Origin: Candidatus Heimdallarchaeota archaeon
Lineage (GTDB): Archaea > Asgardarchaeota > Heimdallarchaeia > Heimdallarchaeales > Heimdallarchaeaceae
Reading direction: 5' to 3'
Assembly (NCBI GenBank): GCA_019057375.1
Contig: DXJF01000101.1
Span: 1-18,443, forward strand
Length of the DNA: 18,443 bases
The notes under the pieces are model-generated. The model searched no databases and was not told where the DNA came from. It worked only from the letters and a program-made list of their open reading frames with translations. Of this stretch, positions 5,357 through 18,443 are shown piece by piece. How positions within the stretch are numbered: the stretch's first letter is position 1; each line of letters opens with the position of its first letter. A program made the position numbers and the translations under genes.

Positions 5357-7252
5357 TTATTTTGTCTCAATCTCTATGCTAAAAACAAAGTCTTTTGTCT
5401 CATGTAATTCTAAGATTGGTACTTTCATTCTCAGAGTTAACTCTAAATTACGAAAACGTTTCTTACTATCGTATCTAATCTCTTCAGGTACAGTGATTTT
5501 TACCTTTGAGTTTGTTTTTTCATTATTTATCTCCAGAATCACAGAATCTTTTGAACTTGATATGTTTTCTAGGATAAGATTCTCTTGTGAAAATATTGGT
5601 GCGATATAATCTCCCATATTAAATTTAGAGAGACTATAAAGAATGAATTCTTCTTTGACTACCCCTCTATTTTGAAAATTGTAATTAATGTCTATTTTGT
5701 TAGAACCGTTTCTGATTGTAAAAATTTTCTTCAGAACTATGTCACTTGTTGCATAAGTACTTAAAGCAATTTCAACTCCATCAGTTAATTCTTTTCTACT
5801 AGCTACATAACCTTCGTTGAATAGATTATATTGGCCACTGTACTTCTTAGAAACTATATCAAACATTAATCCATAATTGGGTTCTTGGGTTACAGTGTTT
5901 ACAATCAGACTTGGGGATGGAGAAGAAGCTATAAACTCTCCGTTTTCGAGATTAAAAAGATTGTTAATTACACCCCCCCTATGTAGAAAACTACAAAGAA
6001 TGTTGTTATTATAATGAACCATATCTCCACAAATTGGGTCAATTATATGAAAACCATCTTTGGTTATTTTGTCTGTTTTGTAGGCGTTTGCTATAAATTC
6101 TGCTAAATTAATATGATTTATACTATTCCATATATTCATAAAGTCCAGAATATTTACTCCTTTAATTGGTTCATTAAATTGTGAAAAGTACGTATTGTGT
6201 AAATTTGTTAGAAGATAATTCCAAGAATGTTTAATTAGATTTTCAATTGCACTCTTTTGAATATTTTCAAGCGAGCTTGCAGCTTTTTCTATCCTTTTGA
6301 TTCTGTTTAAATTCATTTTTAATATTCTAGTTAGGTTTTCACAACATGGAGAGAGTTCAATAGTCGGTATAGTTTCAGAAGATAATATCATTTCATAAGG
6401 CAATGAATACTTCAAATCGATTTCTTTGATATCGAATTTTTCTATAACTTCTGAAGGTCTAATAAAATTCATCGGCTGATTTAGTAATTGTTTACTTTCA
6501 ATGAAATAGCTGTCAAAATTAAAATCAGATCTAAAGGTCGGGAATTTTAGATCATTAAGATCAATAGTTAGCAAGCCGAATAGATCTATCCCTTCTTTAT
6601 TTGATATTTTGTCCCCTTTTTGGATAGCTTCTGACAAACTGTCAATAATACCTGAGCTGAGATATTGCTTATAGAACTCCGGGAAAAGTCTATAAATACT
6701 TCTCAGATTATATGACGGAAGAACATAAATGTCTTTATCTTTTATTTTAAAGACTTTGGAAAAACTGGGGTCTATATTTCCAATAGGCTTTTTATTAATT
6801 GCTCGATCCAAAATATTCCAGTCTACTATTATATACCTGTACGATTCGTCAACAAGGTGACCTACATTTCGATCATCAAAAACACCGAAGGGAGAATAAA
6901 ACCCTTTAATATACTCATCAGGATAAAAGTTTTTTAGTTCTTTAGAAGCATATTTGATTTGGTGTTTAAGAATCTCATTTTCGAATTTTAACGAAAAAGG
7001 AACATAATTCGAAAACATTGACGCTGACAGCTCTAATTGTTCTGCTAGACAAAGTTTGGAAATGTCTTTTACAATAGATTCATTTTCCCAGATTATTGAT
7101 TGGAGAAAGAGTGTATTAAAGGAAATGGTTCCTTTAAACTGTGGTTCTCTTGCGAACCAATCTATAATCTGTTGATATCTACCCGCGTGATCTTTGGTAA
7201 CAGCACCCCTAAAGCAAGACAGATTATAATGTGCAGATAAATAAACTGTCAT
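5357..7252 (-). CDS. GH57 alpha-amylase/4-alpha-glucanotransferase-like protein, apparently catalytically degenerate
   Basis: Three-part GH57 architecture: N-terminal barrel (VYLSAHYN; GTISFNTLFL; GFYSPFGVFD...YRYIIVD), a central helical region (WNYLLTNLHN) and a C-terminal beta-sandwich (SFLHRGGVINNLF). Start placed at ATG 7252 (MTVYLSAH) rather than the track's TTG 7342, because GH57 homology begins there. Confidence 0.68.
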   Translation of the reverse strand: MTVYLSAHYNLSCFRGAVTKDHAGRYQQIIDWFAREPQFKGTISFNTLFLQSIIWENESIVKDISKLCLAEQLELSASMFSNYVPFSLKFENEILKHQIKYASKELKNFYPDEYIKGFYSPFGVFDDRNVGHLVDESYRYIIVDWNILDRAINKKPIGNIDPSFSKVFKIKDKDIYVLPSYNLRSIYRLFPEFYKQYLSSGIIDSLSEAIQKGDKISNKEGIDLFGLLTIDLNDLKFPTFRSDFNFDSYFIESKQLLNQPMNFIRPSEVIEKFDIKEIDLKYSLPYEMILSSETIPTIELSPCCENLTRILKMNLNRIKRIEKAASSLENIQKSAIENLIKHSWNYLLTNLHNTYFSQFNEPIKGVNILDFMNIWNSINHINLAEFIANAYKTDKITKDGFHIIDPICGDMVHYNNNILCSFLHRGGVINNLFNLENGEFIASSPSPSLIVNTVTQEPNYGLMFDIVSKKYSGQYNLFNEGYVASRKELTDGVEIALSTYATSDIVLKKIFTIRNGSNKIDINYNFQNRGVVKEEFILYSLSKFNMGDYIAPIFSQENLILENISSSKDSVILEINNEKTNSKVKITVPEEIRYDSKKRFRNLELTLRMKVPILELHETKDFVFSIEIETK

Positions 7253-7439
7253 TAAGAAATCAGTCTCACTGGTATTAAAATGTCTTTCTGTGGAACTTCC
7301 ATTCGTTTTAATACGTGACAAACGGCTATATAAATAACACAACCCCTATTTAAACTTATAAAACAATATATAAACAAACATGTGTCACATATTTGTAATT
7401 TGGTGTTAGGGGGCTTCTATCGTACTTTATTTAGCTAGC

Positions 7440-8915: not shown

Positions 8916-11708
8916 TTAGCTTGAGTTTATTTTCAATTCAATTATCTTATCCACATTTAATATTAAATCTGCTAGTTTCTCTTTTTGTGGTCCTCCACCA
9001 ATTGCTAGTTCACCTTTTCCTCCACCTGAACCACCAACTAATTCTGACAATTCCTTAATTATTGAAACAATATCAACTTCTGAATTTTTACTCCTAGCTC
9101 CAACTAGAATTACTTTGTCCTCATCTGAAGAAATCAAAATACTTATTCCATTCTCAAAATTCTTGACTGCTTGAGTAGCTTGAACAATTAGCTCTTTTTG
9201 ATTTCCTGTTGTTTCTTTAACTAAAACATCAACATCCTTGATTTTCTTAGTTTTTATTTGAGTAGGAGAAAATTGCAACTCAGCGATTTTTTGGTTAAGA
9301 TTTTCAATTTCTTTCTTTTGTTCTTTCCATTCTTTAAAAAACCTATTTACAGTTTTAGGAAGTAGTTTAGGTTCTACACTAAGAATATTTGAAGATTCTT
9401 TGAGAATATTTTCTTGTTCTTGAATGTATTTCAGGGCTGGATTACCTGCAAGAATTTCCAGTCTCACTATTCCATCTTGGATTCTTTCACTACTAACAAG
9501 CTTAATGATTCCAATGTCACCAGTGCTATCTAGATGTGTACCACCACATGCTTCTATATCCCATTGATTAATGGACACGATGTGAAGTGTTTTTCCTGGA
9601 ACAACGCCACCTTGATAAATTTGGAAACCATAATTCCTTTCAGCTTCATCTCTATCTAAATCGGTTTTTAAAATTGATCGATTCTCGAATACCACTTGGT
9701 TAGCTAGATATTCAATCTTTTGCAATTCTTTTGCCTTTACAGAGTTGTAATGTGTTATGTCTAATCGAGCTTTGTGTTCAGTTTTATCTGCACCCGCTTG
9801 CCAAACATGATCCCCTAGAATTTCTTTTGCAGCAGTATTTACAACATGAACAGCTGTATGATGACGCATAATATCCATACGTCTTTTTCCATCAATTTCT
9901 CCTTCAACAGATTGACCTTTCTTGAGGTCACATTTTTCCTCTAGCTTATGAATGATTGTAGTTCCTTTTTTGAAAACATCAGTGACATGAAATTCTTTTC
10001 CATCTACACTTATAGTGCCAATATCGTGAATCTGTCCTCCACCTGTAGGATAGAATAGTGTTTTATCTAGTACAAGATATTTACCTTTTAGTACTGATTC
10101 TACTTTGGCTTCAAACTTCGTCTTATAGACATCTTCGTAGTATGAAGTTTGAGTAATATATTCTTCTTCTAATTCTAAAACGAGTTCATCCTTAGCTATT
10201 TTTTGCTTAGCTTTTTGCTGTGCAAGAATTTCTTCCGATTTAATATAGAAATCGTCTGGGACTTCAACATCCAATTTGTTTTCTTTAGCTAGTTCCTTGA
10301 CCATTAAAGGATTAATTCCATTGTTTTGATACAAATCTAAGAGTGTTTTAAAATCAAATTCATTCTTTTGTTGGATTAGTTTATTAACAATTCTTTTCCC
10401 TGATTTCTTAGTTTCTTCATATCGTTTAAGTTCTATATCGATTATCTTGAAGATATCCTCTCTATGCTCCTTTACTCTAGGATAAGAGACTGAAAGGTGA
10501 TCGATTTGAAGATCAAATAGTTTCTCAAATGAGAATTGTAGTCCATATAAACTTCTGAGAGCTTCTATTCTTCGCAAAAGAACTCTTAGGTTGTATCCAC
10601 CACCTACATTTGAAGGAATTGCTCCGTCAGCAATCGTCATAGATAGAGTTCTTGCATGGTCTGCAATTGCATATATCGCTTCTTGTGGTCCAAGAGCTTT
10701 TAACATTTCATCATATGTCATCCCTAGTTTCTTAGCCATTTGTCTTCTTTCTTCTCTCAAATCTTTGACTTCTTCCACTGCTAAAAGACCTGCAAGTATA
10801 TTGTATTCCACTAGTAGTTTATGATCTGGTTTGTAATCATTTTCTTTTTGCAAATAGTTTATGGCTTTTGGAAATATTGCCTCATATATTGAGGGCGTTC
10901 CTTGGGTGAACCATGATACTCTATCCAAACCCCAACCTACATCTATCACTTGCATATCAAGATTCTTTACTTTTCCATTATCGAATCCATAAGCGATAAA
11001 TACATTATTCACGACTTCTATTCCATAAGCCATAGCTTCCAAATTAGGTCCAAAGTTACCTCCACCTGCCCAAATGCCTTCCACATAAGATATTTCTTCA
11101 GGTTTAAGTCCTAATTCTCCAGTTAGATATTGGAAGTTCAAATCTAAGCATCTATCCATCCAATATCCATCAGTTAGTGTTTTAGAATTGAAAGAATGTT
11201 GTCCAAACATAACGAAACAAGTTAAATGTCTAGCTGTTTTTCCAATATTATCTATATCTGAGAATTCTCCACCTGTTCTAATACACATTTGGGGTACAAC
11301 TAGAGGATTTGCTGGAGGATCAACAACCCCTTCTAGAACCCAGGGTTGAAAATCAGCTATAGAGGCTATTGTAAAGTCCATATCAGCTCTCCATCTTGAT
11401 ACAACTGGATAATCCTTTATTGCCGTATGACCATTTTTTACAAAGAAATCTGTCAAACTTTTAATTGTTTGATCAAAGTCCATGTTCTTTCCTTTTTTGC
11501 CAATGAACTTATATCCTCCAGAACATCTGGTATCTCCACAGTTTTCTTGGTCTGGAATTAATGTCCAGAAATGGTGATTACAATGAGGACATTTCTTTCT
11601 GATAAAACCTTTTTCCTTGAATAGGTTAACTTCGTAGCTTTCCTTCTTGAATCTTTCTTTGAGTTGATCTTTTGATATGGACATTATTACTCTAGATGCC
11701 AAAACCAA
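8916..11708 (-). CDS. alaS: Alanine--tRNA ligase, archaeal type
   Basis: Archaeal N-terminal Zn motif CPHC..FWT..CGD..C, FTIASIADFQP, DVGWGLDR, editing motifs HHTAVH and EACGGTH, C-Ala GGGKGELAIGGG. The true start may be ATG 11684 (MSISKD). Confidence 0.97.
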   Translation of the reverse strand: MVLASRVIMSISKDQLKERFKKESYEVNLFKEKGFIRKKCPHCNHHFWTLIPDQENCGDTRCSGGYKFIGKKGKNMDFDQTIKSLTDFFVKNGHTAIKDYPVVSRWRADMDFTIASIADFQPWVLEGVVDPPANPLVVPQMCIRTGGEFSDIDNIGKTARHLTCFVMFGQHSFNSKTLTDGYWMDRCLDLNFQYLTGELGLKPEEISYVEGIWAGGGNFGPNLEAMAYGIEVVNNVFIAYGFDNGKVKNLDMQVIDVGWGLDRVSWFTQGTPSIYEAIFPKAINYLQKENDYKPDHKLLVEYNILAGLLAVEEVKDLREERRQMAKKLGMTYDEMLKALGPQEAIYAIADHARTLSMTIADGAIPSNVGGGYNLRVLLRRIEALRSLYGLQFSFEKLFDLQIDHLSVSYPRVKEHREDIFKIIDIELKRYEETKKSGKRIVNKLIQQKNEFDFKTLLDLYQNNGINPLMVKELAKENKLDVEVPDDFYIKSEEILAQQKAKQKIAKDELVLELEEEYITQTSYYEDVYKTKFEAKVESVLKGKYLVLDKTLFYPTGGGQIHDIGTISVDGKEFHVTDVFKKGTTIIHKLEEKCDLKKGQSVEGEIDGKRRMDIMRHHTAVHVVNTAAKEILGDHVWQAGADKTEHKARLDITHYNSVKAKELQKIEYLANQVVFENRSILKTDLDRDEAERNYGFQIYQGGVVPGKTLHIVSINQWDIEACGGTHLDSTGDIGIIKLVSSERIQDGIVRLEILAGNPALKYIQEQENILKESSNILSVEPKLLPKTVNRFFKEWKEQKKEIENLNQKIAELQFSPTQIKTKKIKDVDVLVKETTGNQKELIVQATQAVKNFENGISILISSDEDKVILVGARSKNSEVDIVSIIKELSELVGGSGGGKGELAIGGGPQKEKLADLILNVDKIIELKINSS

Positions 11709-11804: not shown

Positions 11805-12995
11805 ATGAAAGATGTCGAAATTAAGGAAGTATCGGGGGACGAATTAGATCCATTGCTCGAAATGGTTTTTTATGCTTTTTTTTCAACTCCTGGTGACATT
11901 GAAAGATTACTTAAGAACAAACATTACTTCAAAGAGGATTTGTGTTACGCAATTTATGAGGGTGATAACCCTGTTTCAGGATTAATGCTCAAACCTATCT
12001 TGCAAAATGTTCGAGGAACAATTAAAAAAATGTGCGGAGTCGCAGAAGTCGTTACAAATCCTGAAGCTAGAAGAAAGGGATATGCAAAGAAATTAATGGA
12101 TCTTTCATTCAAAAAGATGAAAGAAAAAGAACAAGTATTTTCTACCTTATATCCTTTCAAAGAGGAGTTTTACGAAAGATTAGGGTATGTTAGTTTTCCT
12201 CAATTAAGAACAGCTGTTTTCTCTCCTCAATCTTTGGCTCCTTTAATCAAAGAAGAACTAGATGGTACTGTAGAAAAAATCAACATCAAAGAAGGAATGG
12301 ATCAATATCTTGATTACATTAAGAAGTTTCAGCTTAAAACCCATGGGATGGGAATAAAACATGACACTGAACAAGCTAAGATGAAAGATGAAGCTGCTTA
12401 CTGGATTGCTATTGCAAAAAATAATAATGGTGAGGTTATAGGAATCATGACCTATAAAATCACTGGATTTTGGAAAGAAATTAAAATTAGACATTTTTAC
12501 TTTGATAATTCTCTTGGCAAATATCTGTTACTGCAATGGTTAGCTCACCATGCCGACCAAGTTAATGAAATTCATCTCCCTGTTCTTCCTGGAGATTTTC
12601 CTGAATTATGGTTTAATGATACATTTTGGGGTTCTAAGGGGAAAATAGTCAGTAGAGAATGGGTGCCCTCTTGTATGGGAAGAGTTGTAATTGTTGATCA
12701 AATGTCTGGAATTCATGTTGGAAAAGGAGCTATTTCGATAAAAATCAGAGATGAACAATGTGACTGGAATAACAAAATATACTCATTTGAGAGCGAAGAA
12801 AAAATTCTAGAAGTAGCTGAGACTGATCAATATGATTGTGAGTTATCAATTCAAGGATTATCTGCCATAATCTACGGGTGTTATAATCTGGATGACTTCC
12901 AATTTAAAAGATGGGGTAATTTAACAGAAGAAAATAAGCTAACACTAAAGAAACTCTTTCCACAAAAATTACCACATTTACATGCAGATTTCTAA
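11805..12995 (+). CDS. Eis-family GNAT acetyltransferase (tandem GNAT + SCP2-like C-terminal domain)
   Basis: Acetyl-CoA motif GVAEVVTNPEARRKGYAKKLM, STLYPFKEEFYERLGY, and C-terminal ELSIQGLSAIIYG..LFP typical of Eis-like proteins; 396 aa. Confidence 0.85.
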   Translation: MKDVEIKEVSGDELDPLLEMVFYAFFSTPGDIERLLKNKHYFKEDLCYAIYEGDNPVSGLMLKPILQNVRGTIKKMCGVAEVVTNPEARRKGYAKKLMDLSFKKMKEKEQVFSTLYPFKEEFYERLGYVSFPQLRTAVFSPQSLAPLIKEELDGTVEKINIKEGMDQYLDYIKKFQLKTHGMGIKHDTEQAKMKDEAAYWIAIAKNNNGEVIGIMTYKITGFWKEIKIRHFYFDNSLGKYLLLQWLAHHADQVNEIHLPVLPGDFPELWFNDTFWGSKGKIVSREWVPSCMGRVVIVDQMSGIHVGKGAISIKIRDEQCDWNNKIYSFESEEKILEVAETDQYDCELSIQGLSAIIYGCYNLDDFQFKRWGNLTEENKLTLKKLFPQKLPHLHADF

Positions 12996-13012: not shown

Positions 13013-14182
13013 TTACATTAAAGCTTCCCAAATATTTGGTGTAGAATCAGGATAAAAACTATCTATATCCTTTATTTCAATAACTATTTTTCCAGTATCC
13101 CCATGAATTGAATAAGGTATTCTACTTACTCTTTTAATGTCTGTAGATACAGCTCTATCAATTCTAGGGTATCTATTCAAGATTATGTCATTTGACATTT
13201 TCCTTCTAACTTTCCAATCATTTGGCATTATAATGTTATATTGATTATGATCAAAAGAAGTAGTCTCATTAACTTGAGTTTTTATTTTTCTAGCCTTAAG
13301 TTCTGTTAAACCAAAATCTTCAACTTCTAATTTTGTTATATTTTCTAGTTCACCAGAACAGTATTTGCATTTGATATTGCTATTTAGAATTCTTTTGTTT
13401 AGTGCAGCAAACCTTAGAACTTCTACTTTTTTTCCTGTTATTTCTTCTATCAATTCATAAGCTCTAAATTTAGACTTACAGCTTTGACATTGTAAGATAG
13501 GGTTATCCAAATCCACAAGAAAAGAGTGCTCAATGTAAGGTTTTACTAGAAGAGAAAAAATTCTGTTTCTGAGAGGTTTTGCTTCATTAGGAATTTCTTC
13601 TATAGATTGAGATCTGGTTTCGTCATGTATGAAGGTTAAATAGTTCAAAATTGAAACTCTTTGTTCATTATTTAGACCCTTTGATTCTTTATCTACTACC
13701 CATCCATGTACTCCTCTTCTACCTGAAAAAAACCATTTCATCTCCTTAAAACCAAAATCTTCTTTCATAGTTTCTTCAATAAATGCAACTGCATCTTGAA
13801 CTAAAGGCCAGCAGATTTTACAATAATCGTATTTACCGCAATCACATGATCTTACTAGATCATATTCGTTGATATCAATGTCAAAAATAAATTCTCTGTA
13901 CTTCCACTTGATAGAATGTATTCTATTATCTCTGGAAGGTGGTTTTTCATAAACTGAACCTACATAAGCATGCTGAACTGAATTAGAAACCATAAACTCT
14001 CTCAATTTTTTTGTATTTTCAAAAGATATGTTTCTTGTAAATCTATCATTAATAACAAACCCAAATTCTCTATTTTGAAAATCAGACAAACCTAGATAAG
14101 ACATAAAACTCTCTATAGGAAATTTCTTCTCATAATATTCAGACAGTAATTCTAATGTAACTTTCTCACTCATCTTCATCAC
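13013..14182 (-). CDS. priS: DNA primase catalytic (small) subunit, eukaryote-like, with an extra Zn-binding insertion
   Basis: REFGF, EFIFDID (catalytic DxD), CDC..CKIC Zn site, FSGRRGVHGW, IDRAVSTD..RIPYSIHGDTG. Overlaps the priL stop codon; the start could be ATG 14173. Confidence 0.95.
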   Translation of the reverse strand: MMKMSEKVTLELLSEYYEKKFPIESFMSYLGLSDFQNREFGFVINDRFTRNISFENTKKLREFMVSNSVQHAYVGSVYEKPPSRDNRIHSIKWKYREFIFDIDINEYDLVRSCDCGKYDYCKICWPLVQDAVAFIEETMKEDFGFKEMKWFFSGRRGVHGWVVDKESKGLNNEQRVSILNYLTFIHDETRSQSIEEIPNEAKPLRNRIFSLLVKPYIEHSFLVDLDNPILQCQSCKSKFRAYELIEEITGKKVEVLRFAALNKRILNSNIKCKYCSGELENITKLEVEDFGLTELKARKIKTQVNETTSFDHNQYNIIMPNDWKVRRKMSNDIILNRYPRIDRAVSTDIKRVSRIPYSIHGDTGKIVIEIKDIDSFYPDSTPNIWEALM

Positions 14183-15518
14183 TCCCCTTTACATCTTTTT
14201 CTTCCTCTTTCTTTGCATAGAATCTTTTGTAGGCTTGCCTAGTGAAACTTATCATCTGATTAATGTGATTTCCTCGTACAGTCCAATCAGTTAATAATGT
14301 AAAAAATCTCGCACATGCTCTTTGATACTGTTGACCATTTAATAATTTGGAAATATCTTCTATAGCCTTTTCAACAACTTCTTCCTTTCTATCTTCAAAA
14401 CGTGTTTTTATGTCTTCAATAATTTTTGCACTTTCTTTATGTGCCCAGTAACAATAATAATTATTAATACAAGTTTTACAGCTTGGAGGGTTATAATCGA
14501 CTTCACGACCAACTTTACCATAAATATGTAGAATTTGATAGCTAACCCTCTGTTTAAACTCCTCAAAAGAAATTCCAATATTATCTACTGAGTTTTCATA
14601 CCAAAATCTCTGTTGTTCTTCAACTGACATGCCAGCTCTTTTTAGAAAAGTTCCCAACTGCCAATTTTCTAAATGAGCAAGATGACCTTCTGATTTAAGA
14701 ATCCCAATTAGCTCCTGAATACATGGTGGAAATAATTCGGTTTTAGAAAGGATTTCTACTTCCTCTTCTATGCCTAAACTAAGGTAATCTTTCGATAATC
14801 TTGTAGATCTAGCAATCTCTTCTACTCTGTTAAATATAGGTTTAATAGCATTTTTTAATCCTTCATCTTGTTCGACAAGTCCTTTGGATTTCTCAATAAC
14901 CTCTCTCAGCTGTTTCTCAAACTCTCTTTTGACTGCAAGGCGTAAGTCCGCAAGAGTAACAATACCCCATCCTTTGTAGAGAAGTACTCTTTTTGCTGAA
15001 ACTATTGAGGGTATTTTTGTGTAATGAATAGCTACTTTTCTGTTAAGGTCAGTAGCACTTGTTCCATATTTGCTTTTAGCGTATTTTACAGATCTTGTAT
15101 CGACTTCCGCAATATTGAATCTTCTGTAAATATCTATACCAAACAAGCTATTAATTTCACTGATTAACTTAACGTTTTCTTGAGAATAAAGTTCTCTTAA
15201 CACACTTACTTTTTGTTCAAAACTTGAACTGCTGATAAAACGAAATTCAAATAGATCCCCCTCAACCTCTATCAACCAGGATGTTAATCGTGGATCTAGG
15301 GAAACTGCAAGTTTAAGTGAAGTGTGTCCTCCAAATTCCTCTACTTTCGACTGAAACCATTCATCTTCAGACATCCATGTAGGTTGAGTTATTATCCATA
15401 AATCTTCAGAAATCAGACGATCTAAGCGAGTATTAGCATAAATATTCCAGCTTTCAATATCTATAGATATATCTCCAGGATCTTTTAAAACAAACCAGTC
15501 AGGAATTTCAGTCGACAT
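14166..15518 (-). CDS. priL: DNA primase large subunit with Fe-S domain, p58-like
   Basis: FPPC, HLAHLENWQLGTFLKRAG, YQILHIYG, YNPPSC, YYCYW, YQRACARFF. Directly upstream of and overlapping priS. AAAGGA ribosome-binding-like sequence upstream of ATG 15518. Confidence 0.93.
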   Translation of the reverse strand: MSTEIPDWFVLKDPGDISIDIESWNIYANTRLDRLISEDLWIITQPTWMSEDEWFQSKVEEFGGHTSLKLAVSLDPRLTSWLIEVEGDLFEFRFISSSSFEQKVSVLRELYSQENVKLISEINSLFGIDIYRRFNIAEVDTRSVKYAKSKYGTSATDLNRKVAIHYTKIPSIVSAKRVLLYKGWGIVTLADLRLAVKREFEKQLREVIEKSKGLVEQDEGLKNAIKPIFNRVEEIARSTRLSKDYLSLGIEEEVEILSKTELFPPCIQELIGILKSEGHLAHLENWQLGTFLKRAGMSVEEQQRFWYENSVDNIGISFEEFKQRVSYQILHIYGKVGREVDYNPPSCKTCINNYYCYWAHKESAKIIEDIKTRFEDRKEEVVEKAIEDISKLLNGQQYQRACARFFTLLTDWTVRGNHINQMISFTRQAYKRFYAKKEEEKDVKGSDEDE

Positions 15519-15552: not shown

Positions 15553-16683
15553 TTAAAAAAATTGTGTTAAAGTTTTTTGATTATTATCTATTTTTCTTAA
15601 ATTAGATATTTTGATCCCTACCAGTCTTATGTCTTCAGGTTTTTTATTTTCAAATTCTTCTAGAAGTTTCTGAACTACAGTCCTAACAAGTTTTTCTGAG
15701 ATATTGTAACTGGATAGAGAATGTGCTCTAGTATAGGTTTCGAAGTTTTTAAAACGAATTTTTAGAGTTATTGTTTTAAAACTCATGTTTTTAACTCTCA
15801 TTCTTGCAATAATTGTGTCAATGGATGAATCAATTTGTACCCAAATATCTTCCCATTTTTGGTGTCTATTAAAGAAGGTTTTCTCTTCACTTATTGATTT
15901 TCTTTCATTAGAAACGAATTTATTTTCAGTATTTTCAGTATTGAAACCGTTCACTAGTTTCCATGTTTTAAGTCCATATTTACCAAATTTCTGGTAGACT
16001 AACTGGTATGGCAACTTAGCTAAATCACCACAAGTGTAAATTTTTTTCTTGCTGAAAGATTCAGCACTTTTCTTTCCTACTCCAGGTATGATGGTAATTT
16101 TTAGAGGTTCCATAAATTCTGTAATATCTAGAGGTTTTACAACAACTAATCCATCAGGTTTATCTGTTTCAGAAGCGATTTTTGCCAGTATTTTAGTGGG
16201 AGCAATACCTATTGAACAAGTTAAATGTTCTGTCGCAAAAATGTCATCCTTTAATTCCACAGCAAGTCTTCTTGCTTCTTCATAATCGGATACAATTTCA
16301 GTTAGATCAAGATAAGCTTCATCATTACCCGCTACTTTCATTGTAGGAGAATAATGTTTTACTATATTCATAATACTCTTGGAAACATCACTATACAGCT
16401 TATATGACCCTCTAACCATTGTTAAATGAGGACATAATCTTAGTGCTTGTGATATTGGCATACCTGAATGAATGCCATATTTTCTTGCTTTATAGTTACA
16501 AGTACTAACGACACCTTGTTTTGTTTTTGGATTTCCTCCAACAACAAGAGGTTTATCAGCTAAATCAGGATTCTCTCTTATTTCAACAGAAGCAAAAAAA
16601 GCATCTAAATCCATGTATAAAATGATAGAATCAAATGTTTGTTCCTTCTCGGAGAAATAAACGACTTGATTAGCAAGTGTCAT
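15553..16683 (-). CDS. dinB: Y-family DNA polymerase IV (DinB/Dpo4) with C-terminal PIP box
   Basis: YMDLDAFFASVE, STCNYKARKYGIHSGMP, DEAYLD, CSIGIAPTKILAKIAS...KPDGL, IPGVGKK, little-finger domain, and terminal QKTLTQFF. Confidence 0.96.
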   Translation of the reverse strand: MTLANQVVYFSEKEQTFDSIILYMDLDAFFASVEIRENPDLADKPLVVGGNPKTKQGVVSTCNYKARKYGIHSGMPISQALRLCPHLTMVRGSYKLYSDVSKSIMNIVKHYSPTMKVAGNDEAYLDLTEIVSDYEEARRLAVELKDDIFATEHLTCSIGIAPTKILAKIASETDKPDGLVVVKPLDITEFMEPLKITIIPGVGKKSAESFSKKKIYTCGDLAKLPYQLVYQKFGKYGLKTWKLVNGFNTENTENKFVSNERKSISEEKTFFNRHQKWEDIWVQIDSSIDTIIARMRVKNMSFKTITLKIRFKNFETYTRAHSLSSYNISEKLVRTVVQKLLEEFENKKPEDIRLVGIKISNLRKIDNNQKTLTQFF

Positions 16684-16744: not shown

Positions 16745-18443
16745 TTACCTTTTTCTTCTTCTAAAATGTAGTGCAGCTAAACCTACTATTCCTATCGCAG
16801 GCAATACAAACTCATAAGAAGTGAAACCTGGATCAGTGTCAACATATACAACCCCAGGATTTGGAGTATCAACTATGAAATCAGTGTTACAATTATTAGT
16901 GTCTTCATTCGCAGGATCTCTTTGTAAAGTTTTATCTGCATCTGTAGTAGAACCTGACCATGCAACAACGCCTGCTACACTTCCAGATCCCCAAGCAACA
17001 GCATCTTTTGTAACATCAGACGGATCTTTTAAACTAATATCATCGCCTGTATTAGCTAGTTGTATGTTACCTAAATTGTAATCAGCTGCTGGAGTTGTAA
17101 CACCTAATGCTGTCATCTCACTTTGATATATTGCTTTATCGTATGCAAATATCAATATGTCATCCGAATCTATTTGTGCTTCTTCTGGTAGGATGTAATT
17201 ACCCTCGTTGTCTGTTAGTTTCCAGTTTTCAAGGTAAATATTAAAATCAAATGCATTATAAATCTCAACAAATTCCCCTTCAGGTTCATCGTCAGCATCA
17301 TATCGAATTTCAGTAATGAATAGTTTCCATCCTACTTCATTGATTATGTTAATCTTCTTCACAACTTCAATTGGATCTCCCACAGTAGGAGTTCCTACAA
17401 CTTTAATATTGTGGATACCATCGGTATATGTATCAGTATTGATGCTAGTACTGACTATTCCAGTTGGATTACTCCAGATATGAACAGATGTACCATCAAT
17501 AAAAAGTTCTCCAGCTGTGTATGTGTTGATTGCAAATGATGCCTGGAACAAGAAGCTTCCTGAGGCTATTCCTCCAACTTTTGGAGATACTAAAGCAACT
17601 GGAGCTGCAAAACCAACAGGTGTTTCACTATTAGCCCAATCATAATCAAATACATCTTTGAAATATGTTGCAACATTAGCATTTTTTACGATAGCTCCTG
17701 CTTCTCTGTTATTTTCAATTGAATTGTTAGACCAGTTGATACTTGAAACTTGAACAGTTTCGCCATCAACAGAAACATATTTGTTATGATCATACATCCC
17801 TTTGAAAAACTTAACTTGAACACCACTGTTGATTAAAGTTTCTGTAACATTTTCAGTTGATGAGTCTGGTTCTGGTATAAGAACTCTTATTGAAACCCCT
17901 CTCAGAGCAGCGTCAATAACATCATTGAGTAAATCACAATCAAACTTGATATATTGAAGTTCTAAATCGATACTAGTAGTTGCTGATTGAATTAAGTTAG
18001 AAAGTAATTCAAAACTGTTATCTGGAGAGAAAATAGGTGTCACTTCAGCATATTCAACGAAGGTAGATGGAGAAAATGGGTGCTCATAAGTTCCACTAGT
18101 TTCAGGAGCTTGAAGGTTTCCTGTATGTCCAATTGCAGAATCGTAAGCGGTAGAGATAAACCCATCAGCAATGAAGACACCTTCAAAGTATAATGCAATT
18201 TCTGCATCATTAAAAACAAATCCCATCTCTCTATTAGTTCTTGCTACAGGTTCTTCAGGAATACTTGAAGGTGCCCAGTTTCCAGAGTATACATAAACTT
18301 CTTGACTATCAACAATCCAGAATTTAGCGTGTGTAAAAGTGAAAGAACTACTTGTCCAGTAAACATCAATTCCTGCATTATCTAGTCTCCAAGCAGCTTC
18401 TTCGGTGTATTCATCTTCATAGCTATTAACACGATCATCAGAA
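16745..18443 (-). CDS. Cell-surface phospholipase D-superfamily protein (two HKD motifs) with Ig-like and lamin-tail domains and PGF-CTERM-like anchor; 5' end beyond the right edge
   Basis: The frame stays open upstream of the track's ATG 18226 to the window edge (...FTHAKFWIVDSQEVYVYSGNWAPSS...NREMG). HKD1 is at 18308-18331 and HKD2 (HNKYVSVD..SSINWS..NREAG) at 17765-17788. LTD signature LFITEIRYD..EFVEIYN..LENWKL..LANTGDDISL. C-terminus DPGF-hydrophobic helix-RRRKR. Confidence 0.86.
   Translation of the reverse strand, partial: SDDRVNSYEDEYTEEAAWRLDNAGIDVYWTSSSFTFTHAKFWIVDSQEVYVYSGNWAPSSIPEEPVARTNREMGFVFNDAEIALYFEGVFIADGFISTAYDSAIGHTGNLQAPETSGTYEHPFSPSTFVEYAEVTPIFSPDNSFELLSNLIQSATTSIDLELQYIKFDCDLLNDVIDAALRGVSIRVLIPEPDSSTENVTETLINSGVQVKFFKGMYDHNKYVSVDGETVQVSSINWSNNSIENNREAGAIVKNANVATYFKDVFDYDWANSETPVGFAAPVALVSPKVGGIASGSFLFQASFAINTYTAGELFIDGTSVHIWSNPTGIVSTSINTDTYTDGIHNIKVVGTPTVGDPIEVVKKINIINEVGWKLFITEIRYDADDEPEGEFVEIYNAFDFNIYLENWKLTDNEGNYILPEEAQIDSDDILIFAYDKAIYQSEMTALGVTTPAADYNLGNIQLANTGDDISLKDPSDVTKDAVAWGSGSVAGVVAWSGSTTDADKTLQRDPANEDTNNCNTDFIVDTPNPGVVYVDTDPGFTSYEFVLPAIGIVGLAALHFRRRKR

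Follow-up and report, generated by a model that had tools for sequence, protein, structure and literature searches.

A putative zinc module derived from glycyl-tRNA synthetase in the catalytic primase subunit of one genus of Heimdallarchaeaceae

The catalytic (small) primase subunit, PriS, encoded in the 18,443-nucleotide stretch of Heimdallarchaeota DNA analyzed here (hereafter, the window) carries a 57-residue putative zinc module with four cysteines (residues 226–282; 13337..13507, minus strand). Our sequence searches and comparisons show that it descends from insertion domain 1 of glycyl-tRNA synthetase (GlyRS) of the dimeric (alpha2) type and has since diverged. A segment of the GlyRS gene (glyS) appears to have been copied once and to have come to lie in the helical subdomain, in the stretch that separates catalytic motif II of PriS from motif III, with the GlyRS copy retained; after the transfer, the module would have acquired a basic net charge and three fixed aromatics, while the GlyRS-invariant Asp was lost. 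We regard this explanation, taken whole (i.e., GlyRS origin, copying within the genus, a working part of the primase, and refitting), as highly probable, and grade the function proposed for the module separately and more cautiously below. Primase catalytic subunits are highly conserved, and the enzyme of the Heimdall group is the closest known prokaryotic relative of human PRIM1.

The host gene, priS (13013..14182; this and all other features given below lie on the minus strand unless stated otherwise), encodes a eukaryote-like archaeal PriS, as judged from a Pfam profile, PDB matches, and a structural model. Its ORF comprises 389 codons counted from a GTG at 14182, which residue numbering follows here, and the protein is probably 386 aa long because the starts of its orthologues coincide with an ATG three codons later (14173), the likely start. 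PF01896 matched aa 100–370 (Pfam: 108.6 bits vs. a cut-off of 26.8, E = 5.3e-31). The best matches in a PDB sequence search were human and Xenopus Pri1 (E about 1e-40), the former with 27–30% identity, and those to the PriS of Pyrococcus and Saccharolobus were far weaker (E = 1e-10 to 1e-13). Motif I (DxD) reads DID (D101, D103; 13874..13882) and motif III (hD) reads RID (aa 340–342; 13157..13165), and both are invariant among 22 aligned PriS proteins. In motif II (SGxRGxH), which reads SGRRGVH (aa 153–159; 13706..13726), six of the seven residues are invariant in this alignment and V158 is nearly so. The canonical PriS zinc knuckle, CDCGKYDYCKIC (C113, C115, C121, and C124; aa 113–124; 13811..13846), is again invariant among the 22 proteins. 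A full-length model, built from an alignment without GlyRS rows, reached an overall pLDDT of 90.3 and a pTM of 0.87 and has the Prim fold, matching human Pri1 (6r4s) with a Z-score of 29.4 and an rmsd of 2.9 over 302 aligned residues. The gene for the large primase subunit, priL, is adjacent, and a whole-genome comparison found one PriS copy in each genome of the family.

Minus-strand translation of 13337–13507 returns exactly the 57-residue segment quoted in the initial annotation (beginning DNPILQCQSC and ending SGELENI), in frame within the ORF. The four cysteines claimed for it can be read directly from the translation, C232/C235 in a first knuckle (CQSC; 13478..13489) and C272/C275 in a second (CKYC; 13358..13369), with 36 residues between the pairs. 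Its placement between motifs II and III, in addition to the normal PriS zinc site, is also borne out by the positions of those elements. The canonical PriS knuckle and the zinc-binding domain of bacterial DnaG are small Cys4-type modules on a primase core that are thought to contact the template; they are unrelated in sequence and origin to the GlyRS-derived module, which comes on top of a canonical knuckle that is retained. In the alignment of 22 PriS proteins, eight (54–94% identical to the window PriS) contain a block of ~62 residues, whereas 14, including other Heimdall and Asgard proteins, cleanly lack it. Relative to these insert-less orthologues, the full indel spans about aa 225–287 (13322..13510), and the boundaries first drawn for the module were right to about five codons. 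Insert-less eukaryote-like PriS proteins (Gerd_ePriS of 10.1101/2025.10.19.683342; human PRIM1) have the same Prim fold, motifs I–III, and zinc knuckle as the window PriS, and the adjacent priL and a Y-V-G motif are also common to both, but at this point of the helical subdomain they have only helices, with no second zinc site in those aligned. A second variable PriS insertion of 10–19 residues is located between motif I and the zinc knuckle (alignment columns 141–160), starting after E-Y-D-A and finishing in Y-V-G-V-R. It occurs in only some orthologues, with or without the GlyRS module, and is missing from the window PriS.

When whole PriS was compared to whole GlyRS by BLASTP, similarity was confined to the insert segment. 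The alignment to one GlyRS of the same genus is gapless (58 bits, E = 1e-13, 39% identity over 66 aa), and that to another is stronger (65 bits, E = 1e-15, 47% over 70 aa). Using GlyRS genes from 19 related genomes for module comparison, we could align the PriS inserts to the GlyRS modules without any internal gap. The nine closer PriS inserts share 40–52% identity with the modules of their own genus, against 28–36% with the GlyRS of a sister family. The NCBIfam model TIGR00389 matched two places in the window genome, the real glyS and 13328–13507 of the window (model positions 81–141, E = 6.7e-5), and eight other members of the genus also yielded matches in PriS-sized frames (model positions of about 80–141, with E-values down to 1.3e-7). 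Whole PriS scored 22.1 bits on this model, below the cut-off of 243.3. Because only positions 81–141 match, PriS is not itself a GlyRS, and neither TIGR00389 nor BLASTP revealed GlyRS similarity in PriS outside the insert.

The consensus for the archaeal GlyRS insertion given in the initial annotation proved essentially correct. GlyRS insertion domain 1 in its zinc form, present in archaea and many bacteria (the human GlyRS equivalent is about 140–227), and the PriS module have the same CxxC-x36-CxxC arrangement of four Cys, the motifs P-x-x-Q-C, S-x-F-R-A, A-E-G-L (core), and I-K-C, and the same strand-strand-helix-helix-strand order. A zinc motif in insertion 1 of archaeal GlyRS has been described (PMC6104698). 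Across 39 aligned sequences (PriS inserts and GlyRS modules), the four Cys are the sole invariant columns and their spacing is the same in nearly all, which argues that the cysteine pattern did not arise by chance. At the sequence level, the PriS module differs from the GlyRS domain in that C-P-x-C is replaced by C-K-Y-C in most copies, Y274 of this knuckle being fixed in PriS and missing from GlyRS, and in that the Asp of the R-A-D motif, invariant in 25 of 25 GlyRS, is Tyr in all 12 PriS inserts (Y242; 13457..13459).

Short four-Cys modules are common, and weak zinc-finger matches to Pfam were indeed obtained with the segment (E = 0.014–1.5), as would be expected if the GlyRS likeness were the convergence of a generic zinc ribbon. 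All of the generic families tried (e.g., Zn_ribbon_4/5, A2L_zn_ribbon, zf-AN1, and DUF678) remained below their gathering thresholds; the best, DUF678, scored 16–17 bits against a required 24.1, and the rest were lower, most of them spanning a single knuckle. GlyRS matches, in contrast, were significant, as had been predicted for the segment searched alone, and no other family was. Phmmer against the PDB with the segment alone gave a single meaningful match, N. equitans GlyRS (5z5e; E = 0.019), and a profile of eight inserts again recovered only this protein in the PDB (E = 1.8e-4). Searched against 1.84 billion representative proteins, the same profile yielded 81 matches at E ≤ 1e-3 (best, 9.6e-11), all of them GlyRS or GlyRS fragments, a statement that is true of cluster representatives and not of every protein. 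Ten of these matches were checked and all ten pass GlyRS equivalog models; 66 of the 81 also fit a GlyRS profile made without the insertion, and the remaining 15 are short fragments, most with visible GlyRS flanking motifs. The insert-bearing PriS proteins themselves are absent from the library matches, perhaps because an insert-less PriS serves as the representative of their 50% clusters. This exclusivity, together with gapless alignments at up to 52% identity and E-values of 1e-13 to 1e-15, leads us to reject convergence, to which (jointly with an assembly chimera, discussed below) we assign next to no probability.

The predicted fold agrees with GlyRS ancestry. A model of the insert alone (pLDDT 83.6) shows the order strand-strand-helix-helix-strand-helix, and the full-length PriS model has the same secondary structure at aa 229–290, with pLDDT values of 92–96 there. 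In an exhaustive structural search of 48,161 chains with the insert model, human GlyRS (2pme_A, residues 140–227) aligned with 68 of 68 residues (Z = 7.2, rmsd 3.6) and was the only chain with Z ≥ 5; the next was a TFIIE zinc finger at Z = 3.5. Foldseek with the 68-residue insert model also placed human GlyRS at the top (probability 0.99, TM 0.65–0.69), with E-values of 0.08–0.15 that are not significant at this query length; the exhaustive search gave the clearer result. The match of the insert-only fold depends partly on sequence homology, because GlyRS rows were present in the alignment behind that model. Taken together, BLASTP, profile searches, the module tree described below, and the fold match support the GlyRS origin that had been claimed for the module. 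The module resembles GlyRS insertion 1 in its homology, with GlyRS as the only family, in its four Cys, and in its fold, and it departs from that domain in lacking the R-A-D Asp and in lying between primase motifs II and III instead of class II motifs 1 and 2.

To establish how widespread the insert is, the window PriS was compared with those of 25 genomes of the same Heimdallarchaeaceae genus. In 12 of them PriS matched end to end, and in the other 13 it matched in two pieces (1–220 and 280–389), without the insert; two-piece matches were also found in all six genomes of four sister genera, none of which has the insert. The insert is thus no general feature of PriS, being missing from 14 of 22 aligned proteins, 13 of 25 congeners, and six of six sister-genus genomes. 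The same survey bears on whether the segment could be an assembly chimera, a reading favored by the fact that the glyS of the window genome stops at a contig end exactly where its own module would be. Twelve separate assemblies and seven protein clusters (from NCBI, ENA, JGI, and Logan; 54–94% mutual identity) all have the insert in frame, and agreement among assemblies made independently takes the place of a read-coverage check at the junctions. In addition, identity to any GlyRS is at most about 52%, which rules out a mis-joined glyS read. One insert-bearing priS, that of genome G003 (L036, G003:C248:589-1803), contains a single in-frame TAG inside the match, which might be explained by an error in sequencing, by pseudogenization, or by recoding.

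The initial annotation had called for a tree of the insert together with GlyRS domains. In this tree, all 12 PriS inserts group together (98/97), and their clade falls within the GlyRS modules of their own genus (89/94) and is separate from those of sister families and other organisms; the alignment has 58 columns, and the finer order is without resolution. The position of the insert clade points to a single transfer, with a glyS of this genus as the donor and the helical subdomain of priS as the recipient. Whether GlyRS retains the domain, a further question raised at the outset, could be answered from six insert-bearing sister genomes in which the relevant region is readable: their GlyRS keeps its own module, so that the event was a duplication and not a relocation. 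The glyS of the window genome (C61:9225-9926) is cut by the contig end exactly where its insertion module would lie, only model positions 249–562 being assembled, and the sister genomes were used in its place.

In a PriS tree from which the insert columns had been removed, the insert-bearing genes fall into two well-supported clades of nine and three members, with a backbone that is without resolution; a GlyRS tree, taken as a proxy for the species, is equally without resolution. A single insert-bearing PriS clade was not rejected (AU test: p-value 0.061). The insert tree indicates one origin, so that either a single gain with subsequent losses in some lineages or a swapping of priS alleles between members of the genus may account for the two clades. 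Both insert-bearing clades sit on long stems (0.41 and 0.42 changes per site, insert columns removed), which suggests that the rest of PriS evolved faster around or after the insertion.

By codon comparison, purifying selection acts on the insert as strongly as on the remainder of PriS. Between deep insert-bearing pairs, dN/dS ranges from 0.06–0.11 in the insert and from 0.07–0.13 in flanking PriS, with saturated synonymous sites in the deeper lineages (dS about 1.5–2.5). The window copy shows somewhat raised values against its five closest relatives (0.25–0.9), which are based on only 3–11 changes per class. Given a single PriS per genome, intact catalytic motifs, and selection equal to that on the rest of the protein, the insert is best seen as a working part of the replicative primase. 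It might instead be a tolerated passenger, kept only since its deletion would misfold the helical subdomain, and it is true that 13 of 25 congeners prime without it and that it lies in a variable region of PriS. Surface positions are, however, conserved as strongly as the catalytic domain, and the four Cys and six PriS-specific residues have remained fixed across lineages with saturated synonymous divergence; we consider the passenger reading improbable.

These six residues (N227, L230, K238, Y242, F258, and Y274) are shared by all, or almost all, of the inserts, and in GlyRS they are seldom or never found. The PriS inserts have a mean net charge of +2.3 (vs. about −2.5 in GlyRS modules of the same genus) and on average 4.3 aromatic residues (vs. 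1.0); i.e., the module is net basic with about four aromatics in PriS, whereas GlyRS insertion 1 is acidic with about one. Primase builds a short A-form primer-template duplex beside its active site. By analogy with the parent domain, we suggest tentatively that the module provides an extra, zinc-stabilized, putative nucleic-acid-binding surface on PriS for the template or the primer-template duplex, a reading that we prefer while holding it with limited confidence. The short A-form duplex resembles the acceptor helix with which the parent module is linked, and a grip on it could alter initiation efficiency, primer length, or hand-off. Thirteen species of the genus replicate their DNA with no such module, so that priming as such does not require it, and because half of the genus lacks it, its role must be a modulatory one. 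The mode of binding of the parent need not have persisted, given that the GlyRS-invariant Asp has been replaced.

The main rival to a nucleic-acid-binding surface holds that the insert serves protein–protein interaction or bracing, docking a component of the replisome or stiffening the helical subdomain of PriS. Most of the newly fixed positions have hydrophobic or aromatic side chains (L230, Y242, F258, and Y274), and the new aromatics might pack on PriS or on a partner protein instead of touching nucleic acid. The high confidence of the insert within the full-length model (pLDDT 92–96, pTM 0.87) would fit tight packing on PriS, and long stems such as those of the two insert-bearing clades (0.41 and 0.42) are what adaptation of PriS to its insert should produce. 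A basic shift of about five charge units is nevertheless more typical of nucleic-acid binding, and PriL, which is colinear whether or not a genome has the insert, shows no indel matching that of PriS; no partner was identified. A complex prediction of the isolated module with PriL (score 0.01) was uninformative either way. We judge an interaction or bracing role to be possible but somewhat less likely than nucleic-acid binding.

Insertion 1 helps GlyRS to clamp the acceptor stem of its tRNA. This mobile domain, placed between motifs 1 and 2, takes up an ‘upward’ conformation in tRNA complexes (PMC9731397). [quoted passage not shown] This reading, to which we give only a very small chance, draws on the association of the GlyRS domain with tRNA binding (PMC9731397), on the retention of much of the module core, and on the GlyRS-derived accessory subunit of Pol gamma, which already serves DNA replication (Wolf and Koonin 2001, cited in PMC4419789). 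In GlyRS, however, the module works together with a catalytic core and an anticodon-binding domain, neither of which is present in PriS; the invariant Asp is Tyr in every PriS copy, five other positions have been refixed, and no tRNA-related feature was seen near priS. With the other tRNA-binding parts of the parent missing and its invariant Asp gone, retained tRNA specificity is unlikely. Were the module, against this expectation, still to recognize an acceptor-stem-like RNA helix, a tRNA could act as or gate a primer, or couple the initiation of DNA synthesis to tRNA charging, and in a close relative of eukaryotes the status of translation would be tied to replication directly, at the molecular level.

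The transfer of a GlyRS module to a primase appears to be undescribed so far. Our literature search found no paper linking primase, GlyRS, and Asgard archaea through such a module, and the survey and biochemical study of Asgard primases (10.1101/2025.10.19.683342) makes no mention of a second zinc site or a synthetase-like segment. POLG2, the accessory subunit of animal mitochondrial DNA polymerase gamma, offers a precedent for a GlyRS-derived protein recruited to DNA replication, and is traced to a bacterial GlyRS (Wolf and Koonin 2001, as cited in PMC4419789). There, an entire GlyRS gene was acquired by horizontal transfer and turned into a separate processivity subunit, whereas in the Heimdall PriS only a 57-residue insertion module, from a gene of the lineage itself, would have been spliced into an existing replication enzyme. 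The primase would be a second, independent case, next to POLG2, in which DNA replication has taken over parts of GlyRS. The feature is restricted to about a dozen species and represents a recent, datable, and cleanly bounded move of a nucleic-acid-recognition module from an aminoacyl-tRNA synthetase into a core replication enzyme. Insert-bearing and insert-less species within one genus provide natural controls, making the system tractable for studying how accessory domains change primer initiation, length counting, and hand-off, and how a tRNA-associated module gets refitted to a new substrate.

In the window, priS is preceded by priL (14166..15518; PF04104, E = 1.3e-39), which overlaps the priS start by 8–17 nt. 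Just upstream of priL, across a 34-bp gap, is a gene for a Y-family translesion polymerase (15553–16683; IMS and IMS_C domains), and the co-orientation and tight packing of these three genes suggest one operon. An alanyl-tRNA synthetase gene (8916–11708; tRNA-synt_2c, tRNA_SAD, and DHHA1) is present 1.3 kb downstream of priS on the same strand, with no evident link to the GlyRS-derived insert, and is separated from priS by a GNAT/SCP2 acetyltransferase gene in the opposite orientation (11805–12995, plus strand). Farther along, a 661-codon ORF (5357–7342) had no Pfam match at E ≤ 1e-5. Directly upstream of the polymerase-primase block, a gene at 16745–18226 encodes a protein with an unusual pairing of a PLD-like nuclease/phospholipase domain and a lamin-tail domain.
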